Of a stretch of 64,000 bases of DNA, positions 19,121-25,188 are shown in pieces. The notes under the pieces are model-generated. The model saw only the letters and a program-made list of their open reading frames with translations. It was not told the origin of the DNA and did not search any database. This DNA comes from a virus. Its lineage: Duplodnaviria > Heunggongvirae > Uroviricota > Caudoviricetes. The stretch lies in IMG/VR virus record IMGVR_UViG_3300042901_002340; one strand, written 5' to 3'. The position numbers and the translations under genes were made by a program. The first letter of the stretch is position 1. Each line of letters starts with the position of its first letter.

Positions 19121-20053
19121 TTATTGTATTCTGTTAATCTCTGTAGGTATTTCTAGTCCAACCCTCTGTAAAAATTCCACAAATCTTTCCTTTATTTCTG
19201 GTAATTTGTTTATAAGTTCAAACTCAGGAGAAGTTATTATTTTAAATAACTGTTCAAAAGTTTTAACATCATCAGTAGTATAACCTTTACCTAAAGCAAA
19301 ATCTATAAATTCCTGAGGATCATTAGTAACAAATCTTTCGCTTCCTTCTATTTTCTTAGGATTCTTTAATCTGTCTTTTATCTTCCCTCTGTAAGATTTT
19401 GTATGCCAATATAGACCATCGCTTAAAATAAGAACAGGTGTGTTATAATCCAAGACCTCACCAATTTCATTTCTCTCCATAATCTCCTTCCTTGCCGACA
19501 ATATCGCGGCTAGTAACCAGTTTCTATGTGCCGATTTATATTTACTTTCCCTCGTTTTGTAATTTGGTGAATAATATATAAAATCTGCCCATTTCATGTC
19601 TGACAGTGGTATAAGATCAAGTTGAACTAATCCATTATTCTTGTCACCATTTATTGGCCACCCCAGACTAACTATATTGAGACCCTTCAGATAATTTATC
19701 TCAGTAGTAAATCCAAGAATATCGCCAATACCATTTTTTATTTTATCGTAAATAAACCCAGAACATTCCTTTCTTTCTATCCCATTATCCAGAGAGTACC
19801 AAGTTGCATCATAACCAATATCCAAATCTCCCGATGTATCATCAGGATTTTCTTTCTTCCCTATGCTACCAATGATAACATACTGATCATTTATTTTGTT
19901 TGGGTCTATACCGATGAGAGGAAAAAGATTTTCCTGAATACTTTTTAGCGTTTCGGAAAATTCGTCCTCCCTTATTCTTCTAGAAGTTTTTATAGCTGCC
20001 CCTCCCTCGAATATTGAACTAAATCTAGCAAAATCGATAATCCTATTACTCAT
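19121..20053 (-). CDS. Pol-beta superfamily nucleotidyltransferase
   Basis: IGSIGKK...SGDLDIG (GS + DxD) and third Asp in VQLDLI; leader MSNRIIDFARFSSIFE. Confidence 0.75.
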   Translation of the reverse strand: MSNRIIDFARFSSIFEGGAAIKTSRRIREDEFSETLKSIQENLFPLIGIDPNKINDQYVIIGSIGKKENPDDTSGDLDIGYDATWYSLDNGIERKECSGFIYDKIKNGIGDILGFTTEINYLKGLNIVSLGWPINGDKNNGLVQLDLIPLSDMKWADFIYYSPNYKTRESKYKSAHRNWLLAAILSARKEIMERNEIGEVLDYNTPVLILSDGLYWHTKSYRGKIKDRLKNPKKIEGSERFVTNDPQEFIDFALGKGYTTDDVKTFEQLFKIITSPEFELINKLPEIKERFVEFLQRVGLEIPTEINRIQ

Positions 20054-20604
20054 TATCTTTTTTTCCTAGTTTTTTTATAATATGAATTCATTACATCCTT
20101 TAGATAATCTCTGTATATTTCCTCATCCTTGGATTTAGGATTTTGAGGTGAAAAATCATCACCAAAATATTTTTTACCTCTCAGAACACCAGACTTATAA
20201 AATTCCTCAGCATCCTGCTCAGTCACATTTTTATTCTCTATATGCTCAGCTTCCCATTTTTTAATAATCTCATCTTTTCTTCTTCTTATTTCGTCCTTGT
20301 CAAGATCCTTCCAAGATTTAGTATCTTCACCAGGGGAAAGAAAATCTATAAAGGAAGCAGTTCCTTTTGCAACAGCTCCTGTAACAACAGCAATTGCGCG
20401 GGAAGCACTTTTCATACTGGAAAGGTTAGGATCAGAATCGCTATAATAGCTGCTATATCCGCTATCACCAATACCTATCTGATTTCCAATTTTTCTAAGC
20501 CATCTTGTGAAAGATGTTTTTCCGTGAGCATCATAATATTCAGAATTTCCATATGATTCTTGGATATTAGATTTATTGAATTCATCAAAAGATTTTATAG
20601 TCAT
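20053..20604 (-). CDS. hypothetical protein, putative head-internal protein (leader MTIKSFDEFNKSNIQE)
   Basis: 183 aa; first gene behind a GATATATA element. Confidence 0.65.
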   Translation of the reverse strand: MTIKSFDEFNKSNIQESYGNSEYYDAHGKTSFTRWLRKIGNQIGIGDSGYSSYYSDSDPNLSSMKSASRAIAVVTGAVAKGTASFIDFLSPGEDTKSWKDLDKDEIRRRKDEIIKKWEAEHIENKNVTEQDAEEFYKSGVLRGKKYFGDDFSPQNPKSKDEEIYRDYLKDVMNSYYKKTRKKR

Positions 20605-20622
20605 TAGTAAAAAATGTTTTTC

Positions 20623-20630
20623 TATATATC
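20623..20630 (-). promoter_or_regulatory. GATATATA putative late promoter
   Basis: Motif about 19 nt upstream of the 20604 start. Confidence 0.65.
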
Positions 20631-20641
20631 CTTAATATAAA

Positions 20642-21580
20642 TTAAAGTTTAACGTTGTATATCTTATATTCAAAACCTTCCTTCTTATAAATCTCTATTC
20701 TTTCGATGCTATGTTTAGCAAGATAGCTCTTATATTTTCTTGTACTAAAATCATCAACAAAATCTATGACATTAACCTTTTCCTTACCCTCCATCTTTCT
20801 CATTCCCCTACCCAAACTTTGTTTTATAAGGATTTCGCTCTTGTATGACTCGACAAGAAATATATTATGCAGATTGTTTATTGATATCCCAGTGGAGAAT
20901 GTTCCGTACGTCGCAATTAGGACCTTATTAGAGCCGATTGACATTCTTCTCTTATATTCCTCTCTCAAAGCCTCACTAGTGTCGCCATCAACATAAAACA
21001 CCTCTCTATCGCCATTTAATTCTCTGAGAAGATTCCATATCTGCTTACCGTACTCCTCCTTAACAGATTGGAATAAAACCAGGGAGTTTTTAGATGTCTT
21101 ATTTATGAATTCAGTAACATAATTCAGACGTTTTCTACTTTCAATAACTAACTTTCTTTCAAGATTATAAATCTCGTTACCTTCAACGTTATTATCACTA
21201 AGTTTAAGGTCGGCTAATTTTTCTTTATAGACAGGGTCTAACCAATCCATAGTAACTACCTTTATGGAAACAGGAGTTGCATACCCATTATCAAAAAGAA
21301 AACTGGGTGGGATCTCCATCACAAGGGGTCCAAGAAATTGTTGTATAGTCAAATAGTCAGCAGTTCCCTTTTTGGTCAGAGTTCCTGTTAATCCAAATCT
21401 CCATTTGGAATGCATACATTGGGAAACTATCTTCTTTATCGAGGTACTATTTGTATGATGACAATTACTAACAAGAATTCCATTAGCTATATAATTGTGA
21501 TTTAATCCATCATCCGATAATATCCTGAGATTGTATACATTATCCGATGTTTCTATTTTGCTAATTTTTTTTATCTTCAT
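20642..21580 (-). CDS. uvsW: UvsW-like SF2 helicase, C-terminal part, fused to C-terminal split-intein fragment
   Basis: First 39 aa are IntC, then CHH..., RFGLTGT (III), VFYVDG, ATYGTFSTGISI (V), QSLGRGMR (VI). Confidence 0.92.
   Translation of the reverse strand: MKIKKISKIETSDNVYNLRILSDDGLNHNYIANGILVSNCHHTNSTSIKKIVSQCMHSKWRFGLTGTLTKKGTADYLTIQQFLGPLVMEIPPSFLFDNGYATPVSIKVVTMDWLDPVYKEKLADLKLSDNNVEGNEIYNLERKLVIESRKRLNYVTEFINKTSKNSLVLFQSVKEEYGKQIWNLLRELNGDREVFYVDGDTSEALREEYKRRMSIGSNKVLIATYGTFSTGISINNLHNIFLVESYKSEILIKQSLGRGMRKMEGKEKVNVIDFVDDFSTRKYKSYLAKHSIERIEIYKKEGFEYKIYNVKL
21464..21580 (-). mobile_element. split intein C-fragment (IntC, 39 aa)
   Basis: MKIKKISKIE...VYNLRI (block F)...HNYIANGILVSN (block G) followed by +1 Cys. 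Confidence 0.92.
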
Positions 21581-22397
21581 AATTTTTTATTTTTATAGCT
21601 TTTTCAATTCTGTTAGCTATTTTATCAGATTCTGGTTGTCCATTCAATAAATCCCTTCTATAATTAGCGGAAATCCAATTCTCGTCTATATAGTTGAATT
21701 TATACCCGTTTATTTTACACCATTCGTCTGCTGCATACATCTTATCTAAACAATCCTCCTTCTTATTACGTGGCTTAATCTCATATATTATTTTTTTATC
21801 CATATCACAAAAATCTACTATATAATTGCGTAATTTATTCTTTTTTGAATCAAGGTACTCTATTCTTATGTTCTCATATAGAAAATCGGGATTTATAATA
21901 TAAAATAAAGCTTCCCATGAGGATCTAACTTTAACTATTTTATTTTTTATTAGTACTTCTATTTTTCCACCATAGAGAGAATTATTTACACCAGGCGTAA
22001 AGATCCCACATTTTATTTTCTTTCTAACAATTGAGGATAATTTAATTTTCATTGAATTTTTACTCTCATCCGTCATTCTATGCGACGTGTTATTTAATTT
22101 CTGTTTTTCAGAAAAATCCGCATCCGCACAATTTCTGCAACAGAAATCATTAAGAATCCACTTTCTTCCTGATTTTATTTTTTTTTTATTTTTACATCCA
22201 TTAAATTTGCATATACCATTATCAGGATCACAATAGATTAATAGATCATATAATGTTTCGATGTAATAGGGAATGTCAAATAGATTTGTATTTTTGACAT
22301 TAGTAACAATCCTAGTATTAAAATCAGGGATTTCCCTAACTTTTAATATGGAGAGTCTTCTTGAATTTTCATAAAGATACAGATAAAGTGGATTCAT
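21561..22397 (-). mobile_element. free-standing putative homing endonuclease (Cys-rich/Zn region + TnsA/gp4-like PD-(D/E)XK domain)
   Basis: CKFNGC...FCCRNC; VRSSWE...YEN..IEY...YIVDF...YEIKP; located between IntN and IntC. Confidence 0.78.
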
Positions 22398-22420
22398 ATG
22401 TTTGTATGATGAGGTTTGTT

Positions 22421-23431
22421 TTATATATCAAAAAGCTCATCGTAATAATTAAGAGCATCGACTCTTTTCCATTCACCATTTTTTAATTTAACCTTATGAT
22501 TTCCGGTTACCTTAAGAATCTTTCCACATTCTGTCTCTATCTTGTACATTTGTTTATCTTTATTTAGATTTTTATATACAAATTCCACGGTTCTTTTCTC
22601 CTGCCCATTAGTAATATCGTTAATAGTTAATACGGAATCTCCAATATTAACATCAGATATTTTTTTATAACCGCCATCAGCCATACTTACCAATGAATCC
22701 GGAGATAAACACTCATCTATAAATACGCAATCAACCTCGTCAAAAAAATCAGATTCTCTTTTAACCAGGGATTGGTATGTACCTATTATTATATCGCAGC
22801 CATCCTTGATCTTACTTCCACCACCTATCTGCTGAATCTTCACACCGTCTAATTTATCAAGTCCATATTCCTCAAAATCATCATTACCCTGGAATACAAG
22901 ATTGGAATTGGGTACGATCATAAGGATCTTTCTTACCATTCCTTTTGATTTTAGATATGCAAATATCATAAACGATATAAGTGTCTTACCTGATGAGGTT
23001 GCAACCTCAGAAACTGAATACCTATACCTCAATATCTTCCATGCGGTCTCTATTTGGTAATCTCTAGGCATCTTATCTGGATTACCACCTATACCCCCCT
23101 CGAAAAATTCATTAACCCACTGAGTAAATTCATCAAGCTTAACGTCGTCAGTTACGACGCTGTTTAATCCTTCTATTTTTATATCAATTCTGTATTTCTC
23201 GCCGATATCCAATAATTCCCTCCAGAGACCTATTGGAACTTTCCAGAATCCACCTCTCTTCTCTATGAAACATATAGATCCATCCCAAATCTTTTTCTTG
23301 ACTAGAGGATGGAAAAAATGATTATGTATTTTTTGAGTCAGCGAGATCTCGACTTGCTTTTTCTCAACCTCATCAAGTGCTTCCAAGAGAAGCATCCATT
23401 GATGATCATCAGTTACTCTAAATTTTAACAT
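22421..23431 (-). CDS. uvsW: UvsW-like SF2 helicase, N-terminal part, fused to N-terminal split-intein fragment
   Basis: PRDYQ Q-motif, ATSSGKT Walker A, IVPNSNLV, GTYQSL, VFIDE then IntN. Confidence 0.92.
   Translation of the reverse strand: MLKFRVTDDHQWMLLLEALDEVEKKQVEISLTQKIHNHFFHPLVKKKIWDGSICFIEKRGGFWKVPIGLWRELLDIGEKYRIDIKIEGLNSVVTDDVKLDEFTQWVNEFFEGGIGGNPDKMPRDYQIETAWKILRYRYSVSEVATSSGKTLISFMIFAYLKSKGMVRKILMIVPNSNLVFQGNDDFEEYGLDKLDGVKIQQIGGGSKIKDGCDIIIGTYQSLVKRESDFFDEVDCVFIDECLSPDSLVSMADGGYKKISDVNIGDSVLTINDITNGQEKRTVEFVYKNLNKDKQMYKIETECGKILKVTGNHKVKLKNGEWKRVDALNYYDELFDI
22422..22429 (-). promoter_or_regulatory. GATATATA putative late promoter for the endonuclease, overlapping the IntN stop codon
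   Basis: Minus strand TTT GAT ATA TAA encodes F-D-I-stop and contains GATATATA, 25 nt before the endonuclease ATG. Confidence 0.6.
22424..22711 (-). mobile_element. split intein N-fragment (IntN, 96 aa)
   Basis: CLSPDSLVSMADG (block A), KISDVNIGDSVL, LKVTGNHKV (block B TxxH), WKRVDAL, then stop. Confidence 0.92.
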
Positions 23432-23440
23432 TCTATAATT

Positions 23441-23884
23441 TTATTTTACCGTGGAACCTCTTAGGTAGTCCTCCAGAGCTATTCTCTGACGAACGCCATA
23501 AAGCATATGATCCACTGTTTGTATGGTCTGGTCTATAAACTTACGATGATTCTCCACCAATTCCATTTTTTCCGATATTTCAACCAGATCACCTTCTATC
23601 AGCAACATCTTTTCAGTTGCTCCGTATCTAACATTCATTTGTTCCGAATACTCCCTCATCTTTCTTGCTTTGTCGGACTTGTATTTGGAGCTCAGCTTGG
23701 AAACTATTCCAGCTAGCTTATAGCTATACTCCAAAAGTACTTGCCTGTAGCTGAACATGTCAACTTGAGCTTTTGCTAAGGTTTTTATATCCTTCATGTT
23801 CAATGAAAGAACCTGTATTTTTTCTTTCCATTCCTCCCTTTCGGTTTCGAAAACCTTCCCGAAATCTGTTTTTTGCTCAGACAT
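23441..23884 (-). CDS. UvsY-like recombination mediator
   Basis: 147 aa all-helical protein directly upstream of uvsW; C-terminal pattern FIDQTIQTVDHMLYGVRQRI resembles UvsY. Confidence 0.55.
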   Translation of the reverse strand: MSEQKTDFGKVFETEREEWKEKIQVLSLNMKDIKTLAKAQVDMFSYRQVLLEYSYKLAGIVSKLSSKYKSDKARKMREYSEQMNVRYGATEKMLLIEGDLVEISEKMELVENHRKFIDQTIQTVDHMLYGVRQRIALEDYLRGSTVK

Positions 23885-23885
23885 A

Positions 23886-24131
23886 TTAAAATAGTTTTGG
23901 TTTGTTTTTAGATCCTCTCTTTTTGGGTAGATCTAAAACTTTAATTTCATTTTTATTTTCTACGATCTTTTTTTCAACTGGTTCATTTATTTTAGGCTCC
24001 TCAAAATCTATATCAATATTCAAAGAATCGTCACCAGAAACTATTATAGGAAATTTTATCTTAGATTTCTGATTTCTAGTTATCTCATTCTCCCAATTGT
24101 CTATTAAATTTTGCTGATCAATCTTAGTCAT
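23886..24131 (-). CDS. hypothetical protein (likely start MTKIDQ at 24131)
   Basis: ATG overlaps the primase stop (AATGACTAA); the longer ORF-track start overlaps primase by 77 nt. Confidence 0.55.
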   Translation of the reverse strand: MTKIDQQNLIDNWENEITRNQKSKIKFPIIVSGDDSLNIDIDFEEPKINEPVEKKIVENKNEIKVLDLPKKRGSKNKPKLF

Positions 24132-25188
24132 TGATAAAATATCTGAGGTCAAGTATATCATTCGTAAAATAGTTATCCATCCTTTTAACCTTTTTTCCAA
24201 TTGCTCTTAAGTGTATAACAAGATCATTAAGATCCCATTTTCTATTCTTGGTTATACCGTTCTCCTCGAGAAATTTACCCCAGTTAAAAACGGTCTCTCC
24301 CTTACTTAAAAGATCCATGCTTTTTCCTATTCCTGCTTTATCCCAGTCATAGAAGTATTTTTTGTTTTCGACATCAAAAGGAAATCTGTTCTCAAGCGAA
24401 CATAAACCAACAGAATTTGGCCAAAAGAAAGAATCCATTGGTCCTTCGAAAACTGTTATTTCGTGAGAGAAGTCAAGATTACCGATACCGAAAACATTTG
24501 ATATTGGATCGACATCCCTCGCTCTATCCAAAATGGATTCGTCAGTAATATTAAGTAACTTCTCGTATATTCCACTGAGCTTATAGGTTAAATATTTAGA
24601 ACTTCCTTTTATGGAGTTCATATTTCTAACCTGAAGCCCGATTATTTTCTCATCAGGAGTTAGATTGAACAGAAAGAGTCTTTCCTTTCTTGGATCCCAA
24701 GCAAATTTCATATCTGGCTTTTGGTGTCTCCTAGTAATATACCTATGTATAGAAGATCCGAAGACTTCCTGCAATCTAAGTTTTTTAATGAAATCCGCTC
24801 TAGATATTAATAGATCACTTATATCGTTATCAAAGAAATAAGTTATGTCTATCTTTCCTATGGCTGATCTTCTTTTTGTTTTATTTGTATCTATTATGGA
24901 CCTTAATTCCTCACGCTCCTCCCCACTAAATCTTGAATAGAGGGAAAAATCCTTAAAGAACGAAATTGAATCCTTGTAAATTCCACATCCACCATTATAA
25001 CATTTGTATGCCATAGTATCCATGTAGAAATTACCTCTTTTCTTTCTAGCATCATTCGAGTCTCCACAATAAGGACACGAGAAATTCAAACGATTCCCCG
25101 CTTTATAAACTATCTGTTTATTTGGATCTCTAGAAAATTCCTTTGCTAGAACGTCCCTTACTGCTCTTTCGATTTTATCTAGTTGCAT
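24124..25188 (-). CDS. DNA primase (T4 gp61-like)
   Basis: Zn finger NFSCPYCGDS...YKCYNGGC; TOPRIM VFEGPMDS and YDWD; DLND. Confidence 0.9.
   Translation of the reverse strand: MQLDKIERAVRDVLAKEFSRDPNKQIVYKAGNRLNFSCPYCGDSNDARKKRGNFYMDTMAYKCYNGGCGIYKDSISFFKDFSLYSRFSGEEREELRSIIDTNKTKRRSAIGKIDITYFFDNDISDLLISRADFIKKLRLQEVFGSSIHRYITRRHQKPDMKFAWDPRKERLFLFNLTPDEKIIGLQVRNMNSIKGSSKYLTYKLSGIYEKLLNITDESILDRARDVDPISNVFGIGNLDFSHEITVFEGPMDSFFWPNSVGLCSLENRFPFDVENKKYFYDWDKAGIGKSMDLLSKGETVFNWGKFLEENGITKNRKWDLNDLVIHLRAIGKKVKRMDNYFTNDILDLRYFIND

Follow-up and report, generated by a model that had tools for sequence, protein, structure and literature searches.

A probable split intein with a free-standing TnsA-like nuclease gene in the UvsW-type helicase gene of a 430-kb phage

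Protein ligation relies mainly on naturally split inteins, of which the fastest known came from fractured phage genes. In the fractured-gene architecture, a split intein is accompanied by a free-standing homing endonuclease, as in gp41-1, NrdJ-1 and IMPDH-1 (Dassa, London, Stoddard & Pietrokovski 2009; PMC2677866). That study reported N-terminal intein halves (IntN) of 88-105 amino acids (aa) and C-terminal halves (IntC) of 33-54 aa; the nucleases of its fractured genes were GIY-YIG or Vsr-like, and UvsW is absent from its list of host proteins (PMC2677866). Here we analyze a locus with this architecture in the IMG/VR virus record IMGVR_UViG_3300042901_002340, a 430,120-bp phage genome with direct terminal repeats that is rated complete. 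The window, the whole stretch of DNA that was presented for analysis, comprises 64,000 nucleotides (nt) of it. An earlier reading made without database searches (the sequence-only reading) had described a UvsW helicase gene broken by a split intein with an endonuclease gene between the halves, and had pointed out that such an architecture is already known, as the 2009 study documents. Our results give us high confidence that the locus is a fractured gene, in which a class-1 split intein and a free-standing nuclease gene interrupt a UvsW-type superfamily 2 (SF2) helicase gene at DE/CH, where the slash marks the insertion point.

The locus resembles the described fractured genes in several respects. 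The open reading frames (ORFs) for the exteins and their attached intein halves lie on the same strand (Table 1), the break falls at the endonuclease-insertion site, and a separate nuclease ORF stands between them. It is likewise of phage origin and interrupts an enzyme of DNA metabolism, and its IntN of 96 aa and IntC of 39 aa, lengths that a script reproduced from the earlier reading, fall inside the reported ranges. It departs from those genes in its host, a UvsW-type SF2 helicase, and in its nuclease, which is neither GIY-YIG nor Vsr-like. The genes are closely packed: 23 nt lie between the N-gene stop and the start of the nuclease ORF, the last 20 nt of the nuclease ORF overlap the start of the C gene, and the Met that opens IntC is the first possible start codon.

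Table 1. Features of the interrupted helicase locus (window coordinates).
Feature	Coordinates	Strand	Description
N gene	23431..22421	-	336 aa; UvsW N half and IntN
UvsW-like N-extein	22712..23431	-	N-gene residues 1-240; Walker A (..SSGKT..); ends ..VDCVFIDE, first half of motif II
IntN	22424..22711	-	96 aa; C241 is Cys1 (CLSPDS, block A); TGNH (block B); ends ..DELFDI; stop codon 22421-22423
Middle ORF, putative free-standing endonuclease	22397..21561	-	278 aa; frame differs from that of both helicase genes
C gene	21580..20642	-	312 aa; IntC and UvsW C half
IntC	21464..21580	-	39 aa; starts MKIKK..; block F (..VYNL..NHNY..); block G (..GILVSN)
UvsW-like C-extein	20642..21463	-	273 aa and stop codon; starts CHHTN.. 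(+1 Cys of DE/CH); helicase domain 2

The identity of the host gene and the position of the insert follow from comparison with T4 UvsW. By phmmer, the N-extein matched T4 UvsW in two structures (1rif, E 9.7e-15; 2oca, E 3.8e-14), with residues about 37-242 aligning to T4 residues 35-235, and the C gene matched 2oca with E 8.1e-27 (residues 37-310 against 231-500). Domain searches agreed, with ResIII (E 8.8e-15) and phrog_16259 'DNA helicase' (E 5.5e-38) in the N-extein and Helicase_C (E 4.7e-7) and phrog_9690 (E 1.8e-64) in the C-extein. The similarity extends over the full length of T4 UvsW, covering the N-terminal domain, both RecA-like domains and the DECH motif II, but at modest sequence identity, so that 'UvsW-like' is the safe choice of name. 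The two extein alignments meet at NDECH of T4 UvsW with no residue missing across the break. Thus, the insert exactly separates the Glu of motif II from its Cys, within the DECH Walker B motif where the sequence-only reading had placed it, and the extein itself supplies the +1 nucleophile, a Cys. The alignment to intein-less homologues that had been suggested as a check gave the same answer: the exteins are contiguous across the insert in T4 UvsW, and the genes of phage Lak-B5 and of record LR756500.1 are uninterrupted at DECH.

Profile searches identified both intein halves. IntN matched Pfam Hint with E 2.6e-10 and 40.7 bits against a cut-off of 29.7, and TIGR01445 (intein_Nterm) with 35.3 bits against 24.5; together with Intein_splicing, these matches span N-gene residues 240-332. 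The C gene matched TIGR01443 (intein_Cterm) with 18.5 bits against 15.6, and IntC can be aligned with the C-terminal end of the Spl DnaX mini-intein. The two genes divide the Pfam Intein_splicing profile between them, with its positions 1-91 in IntN and 122-155 in IntC. The relation between the halves is clearest in relatives in which they are fused. One contiguous intein of 139 aa (L029) is 55% identical to the window's IntN and 69% identical to its IntC; its residues 3-138 match residues 6-141 of the Npu DnaB mini-intein 4o1r (E 1.9e-6), an alignment over the whole length. In another contiguous protein, P0034, a few linker residues occupy the position taken in the window by a stop codon, the nuclease gene and a start codon, which places the break at the canonical endonuclease-insertion site. 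From sequence, then, IntN and IntC make up one intein, as the contiguous relatives confirm.

The features of a class-1 intein are present in this pair: Cys1 directly follows the N-extein, block B has the TxxH pattern in the form of the TGNH reported earlier (residues 309-312), and after the terminal Asn comes a Cys that belongs to the extein (..VSN/CHH), again as first read. In an alignment of 22 homologues, C241, T309, G310, N311 and H312 are invariant. To extend this comparison, a scan of IMG/VR returned 80 loci, which were surveyed by tblastn with the five parts of the window's element; both intein halves are present in 79 loci. None of these 79 departs from the extein DE, Cys1 or TGNH, and the +1 Cys and the terminal Asn are each found in 78. 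The penultimate residue is Ser in the window's IntC, as the sequence-only reading had noted, in place of a His that is a common but non-obligatory class-1 feature. The intein ends in SN at 69 of the loci, in AN at 6 and in HN at 2 (those of S16 and PM2), indicating that Ser is the norm of this family. The penultimate residue of Npu DnaE is also Ser, and active inteins that lack a penultimate His exist; Ser therefore does not bar membership of class 1.

Between the halves lies the separate putative nuclease ORF that the earlier reading had recognized, a 278-aa frame matching phrog_15427 'endonuclease' with E 5e-21. A helical region at its N-terminus is followed by a Cys-rich, zinc-ribbon-like segment (C63, C68, C86 and C90), and its C-terminal part is a PD-(D/E)xK domain. 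In an alignment of 34 homologues, D195, E206 and K208 are invariant, as are C68, C86 and C90, and C63 is conserved in at least 90%. An AlphaFold (AF2) model of the protein has a pLDDT of 93.9, and its best fold match by VIA-align is TnsA (1t0f; Z 8.8 over 137 residues, rmsd 3.6), followed by I-Bth0305I (3r3p) and Vsr (1cw0), each with Z 5.2. A Foldseek search of the model against PDB gave no match at E<=0.001 (best E 0.015), phmmer against PDB sequences returned nothing meaningful, and profile searches of the nuclease gave no GIY-YIG match. A Vsr-like (EDxHD) identity was also considered and rejected, as the conserved catalytic set, D195, E206 and K208, includes no His. Taken together, its sequence and model point to a zinc-ribbon protein whose nuclease domain is TnsA-like and of the canonical PD-(D/E)xK type.

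The N-terminal domain of Tn7 TnsA (1t0f/1f1z), I-Bth0305I (3r3p) and the window's nuclease share a restriction-endonuclease-like PD-(D/E)xK core, but the differences among them are substantial. The window's nuclease is only ~11% identical to TnsA and has the N-terminal helical region and Cys-rich segment in addition, and its family sits in inteins and split genes, whereas TnsA belongs to a transposon. Its canonical D..ExK triad also sets it apart from the His-containing EDxHD site of I-Bth0305I. The family is large, with 2,766 cluster representatives at E<=1e-3 and 571 at E<=1e-30, and the phage's own genome holds one full copy.

In several T4-like phages, members of the same nuclease family also occur between the halves of the large terminase gene, gp17. 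In the Yersinia phage phiR1-RT the arrangement is formed by g166, g167 and g168 (L092:1408-4257), and a similar locus is present in the Shewanella phage Thanatos-2 (L093:467-3567); the family is found in Campylobacter phages as well. The N half of the split gp17 extends ~39 residues past the terminase domain and the C half has ~107 residues ahead of it, although neither half gave a Pfam intein match at E<=0.01. These loci resemble the atypically split 'Terminase' intein of Dassa 2009 (PMC2677866). The pattern fits a homing endonuclease that has colonized several conserved phage genes.

The element itself is widespread. The same three-gene layout at DE/C is found in Salmonella phage S16, in STP4-a and related Salmonella phages, in Proteus phage PM2 and in the Prevotella megaphages Lak-B2, B4, B7 and B8; the nearest GenBank relative is that of Lak-B4, with IntN ~50% and IntC 54% identical. 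PHROGs families already cover all three pieces, and a protein search with IntN recovered 33 clusters of ~330-aa N fragments. In IMG/VR the element occurs in at least 80 contigs. Useful relatives all came from protein-level searches; a DNA-level search of the phage collection gave only a 177-nt match in Lak phages. Among the 79 surveyed loci, 65 are split with a homologous nuclease, three of them (L058, L059 and L078) retaining only a nuclease remnant; 8 are split without a nuclease, five of these with only 33-282 nt between the halves; and the remaining 6 are contiguous mini-inteins. Empty, uninterrupted sites, those of Lak-B5 and LR756500.1, also occur among the relatives. Nor is the intein confined to UvsW: it is found again, in most cases together with the nuclease, at DE/CH of a DinG/XPD-like helicase (ResIII, a four-Cys cluster and Helicase_C_2), in a contiguous form (P0034, 693 aa) and in split forms (the N fragments P0028 and P0029, and L082-L086).

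Several loci have other contents between the intein halves. In one (L053:5565-7280) a 571-aa DUF7487 protein takes the place of the nuclease, and in another (L075:4683-5414) a 243-aa protein without a family does so. A third (L028:5470-9840) has 4.4 kb with several ORFs between the halves, and its IntN is damaged. The Lak-B4 IntC coding sequence (L003:6273-7250) contains one in-frame TAG, which must be translated as an amino acid for the gene to stay open; the Lak-B4 element thus resides in a stop-codon-recoded megaphage.

The closest cultured counterparts share the layout and insertion point of the window (..NDE/C.. and ..HN/CHL..), namely S16 (gp114/gp114.1/gp115; NC_020416), STP4-a and PM2, whose GenBank annotation reads only helicase, hypothetical protein, helicase. 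The S16/PM2-type element is nonetheless well diverged from the window's, with identities of 36% for IntN, 35% for the nuclease and 46% for IntC. The S16 and PM2 inteins keep the penultimate His where the window has Ser, and the S16-type carrier is a 160-kb enterobacterial T4-like phage, whereas the window's is a 430-kb phage. By sequence, the nearest inteins of solved structure are the Npu and Ssp DnaB mini-inteins (4o1r and 1mi8; E 3e-5 for the window's IntN). These are class-1 inteins with Cys1 and TxxH, like the window's, but they are contiguous, reside in a bacterial replicative helicase at an unrelated insertion site and have a penultimate His. The characterized split inteins are distant. 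In the comparison with gp41-1 and Npu DnaE that had been proposed, made here by phmmer through the contiguous relative L029, the E-values were 0.59 and about 0.04, respectively, against 1.5e-4 for NrdJ-1.

The sequence-only reading had called the locus a new split-intein pair, and this needs qualification. The pair is new as a sequence and with respect to the literature searched, but the element has already been in GenBank (S16, STP4-a and PM2) and occurs in the many IMG/VR contigs noted above. We found no description of a UvsW split intein in the literature searched, although subscription journals or intein registries might hold one; the literature that names UvsW and intein together treats the two separately. 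The intein family is large and apparently undescribed; its host protein is new, and its nuclease family differs from those of the reported fractured genes.

Selection has acted on every part of the element. We estimated dN/dS by NG86, quoting only the few unsaturated pairs since most pairs are saturated (dS >1). For the pair L047/L049, dN/dS was 0.05 for IntN, 0.13 for the nuclease and 0.05 for IntC; for L051/L055, the corresponding values were 0.09, 0.10 and 0.17. The exteins gave comparable values, and all three parts of the element are under purifying selection.

There are also signs of mobility. The Lak-B5 gene is uninterrupted (..CDECHH..; L091), whereas its sister phage Lak-B4 carries a 1.65-kb element exactly at DE/C. 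The flanks of the two are 98.6-98.9% identical overall, but identity falls to 88% upstream and 62% downstream in the 60 nt that adjoin the insert. A co-conversion tract left by homing would be expected to look like these divergent immediate flanks. In the pair L047/L049, dS is 0.2-0.4 for the element but 1.1-2.3 for the exteins, indicating that the element is younger than the host gene there. In a tree of IntN plus IntC (unrooted, with 135 columns), DinG-type hosts appear in at least three places among UvsW hosts, and contiguous forms in three places among split ones; such a tree cannot orient changes from split to contiguous. The contiguous forms L029 and L077, compared with L072, retain a Met at the point where IntC starts in split forms (..F-MKIKS.. 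and ..K-MAQKG..), which hints at re-fusion of split inteins after nuclease loss.

These observations are consistent with the following model. A mobile element has inserted between the Glu and Cys of the UvsW-type motif II, with its intein broken by the free-standing nuclease gene. The three genes are probably co-transcribed, as the nuclease stop overlaps the IntC start and no terminator-like site was seen on their strand. Two polypeptides would be made, N-extein-IntN (336 aa) and IntC-C-extein (312 aa), whose intein halves would associate into one HINT fold. A thioester formed at Cys1 would then be attacked by the extein's own +1 Cys, and cyclization of the terminal Asn would release a helicase with its DECH box restored, with a computed length of 513 aa. 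In co-infections, the nuclease would be predicted to cut intein-less UvsW alleles, and repair would carry over the entire 1.65-kb element along with short stretches of flanking DNA, so that the element would home.

Several observations weigh against this account. The penultimate Ser departs from the consensus His, and block F has an Asn (VYNL) where the Spl DnaX intein has an Asp (VYDI). Both non-consensus positions are family-wide and hence probably tolerated, although they could slow the C-terminal steps. Charge complementarity between the halves is weak, with a net charge of 0 for IntN, +1 for IntC and +3 for the first 12 IntC residues, whereas electrostatic complementarity is typical of DnaE-type split inteins. 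The nuclease's match to TnsA-like_N (PF08722; E 4e-5) reaches 24.5 bits, just under the gathering cut-off of 26.5; its homologue in phage phiR1-RT scores 38.6 bits on the same profile. Promoter and terminator scans at the locus gave results equal to shuffled expectation and were uninformative. Finally, splicing by this intein family is itself a prediction from sequence.

The first two of these points would also suit an alternative in which the halves never splice and IntN and IntC serve as a tight non-covalent dimerization module, yielding a two-chain helicase much like the Aeh1 NrdA fragments, which assemble in this way where a homing endonuclease has been inserted. Split genes that work without splicing are reported from T4-like phages (PMC3045599). 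Nonetheless, we consider this alternative improbable. Over an identity range of 35-100%, 78-79 of the 79 loci retain Cys1, TGNH, the terminal Asn and the +1 Cys, a degree of conservation for which mere binding would not account. A 135-aa HINT domain left in Walker B would part the catalytic Glu from the His of motif II, and the contiguous forms (L029, L068, L077 and P0034) must splice for a helicase to exist at all.

It is less probable still, and by a clear step, that the locus is a decaying, non-functional UvsW gene killed by insertion of the nuclease. Selfish insertions are tolerated in phage genomes this large, but the exteins, intein halves and nuclease are all intact ORFs, with omega of 0.05-0.2 in unsaturated pairs, and the arrangement is kept in 65 loci and in S16 and PM2, which are cultured, viable phages. 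Moreover, no second UvsW-type match appeared in the genome's family searches, none of which was aimed at one.

A break bridged at the level of RNA or translation, by a nuclease-carrying intron, read-through or frameshifting, would leave a contiguous intein with an embedded endonuclease. The shared frame of the window's N and C genes would permit this, and group I introns with nuclease ORFs are common in T4-like phages. Yet the two genes are in frame in 25 of the 73 split loci, which is the chance rate, and an Rfam search over 20000-24000 at E<=1 recovered no intron; its two hits were chance snoRNA-like matches outside the genes. A stop codon always follows IntN, and the Met that opens IntC is conserved and has no possible start codon before it; the nuclease lies in a third frame and overlaps the IntC start, and the five loci with short gaps are split with no nuclease at all. 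We regard such bridging as very unlikely. An assembly or sequencing artefact that split a contiguous gene is conceivable in a metagenome assembly but is effectively refuted by independent records with the same layout, including a contig from another sample (L007), in which the layout is identical and IntN differs by one residue, dozens of divergent contigs and finished genomes of cultured phages.

With the fractured gene as the favored explanation, several wider implications arise. If trans-splicing takes place as its sequence predicts, the UvsW activity of the carrier phages would depend on post-translational ligation. The ~80 relatives form a sequence-distant family with a native +1 Cys and a penultimate Ser, and thus offer dozens of natural variants for orthogonality screening. 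The family also spans empty sites, contiguous inteins and split forms in which the nuclease is intact, decayed or missing. Because these life-cycle variants come with cultured phages (S16 and PM2), the route from mobile to fixed split intein could be tested by phage crosses and proteomics. More tentatively, and with somewhat less than even confidence, we propose that this is an undescribed intein family that targets DE/CH of two unrelated SF2 helicase families (UvsW-like and DinG/XPD-like), that its zinc-ribbon plus TnsA-like PD-(D/E)xK nuclease, whose family also splits gp17, is a third type of fractured-gene endonuclease, and that the variants represent stages of a split-intein life cycle, perhaps including re-fusion.

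Some further features of the genome can be recorded. Outside the window, it encodes a second intein, which is of the classical contiguous kind with an embedded LAGLIDADG endonuclease in a 637-aa open frame (L004:877-2787; G000:C1:396502-398412) and matches Intein_splicing with E 2.4e-9 and LAGLIDADG_3 with E 7e-5. Also outside the window, a region with an internal TAG (G000:C1:271538-271936; L088/L089) weakly matches the C-terminal nuclease domain of the endonuclease family (E 3e-5 and 2e-4) and may be a head-completion-type PD-(D/E)xK gene or its remnant. Near the interrupted helicase, the upstream neighbors include a gp32-like single-strand DNA-binding protein and a primase. A 147-aa ORF on the minus strand (23441-23884) adjoins the N gene in the position that UvsY occupies relative to uvsW in S16 and PM2; neither it nor the 104-aa ORF beside it (23886-24200, minus strand) has a PHROG match at E<=1e-3.

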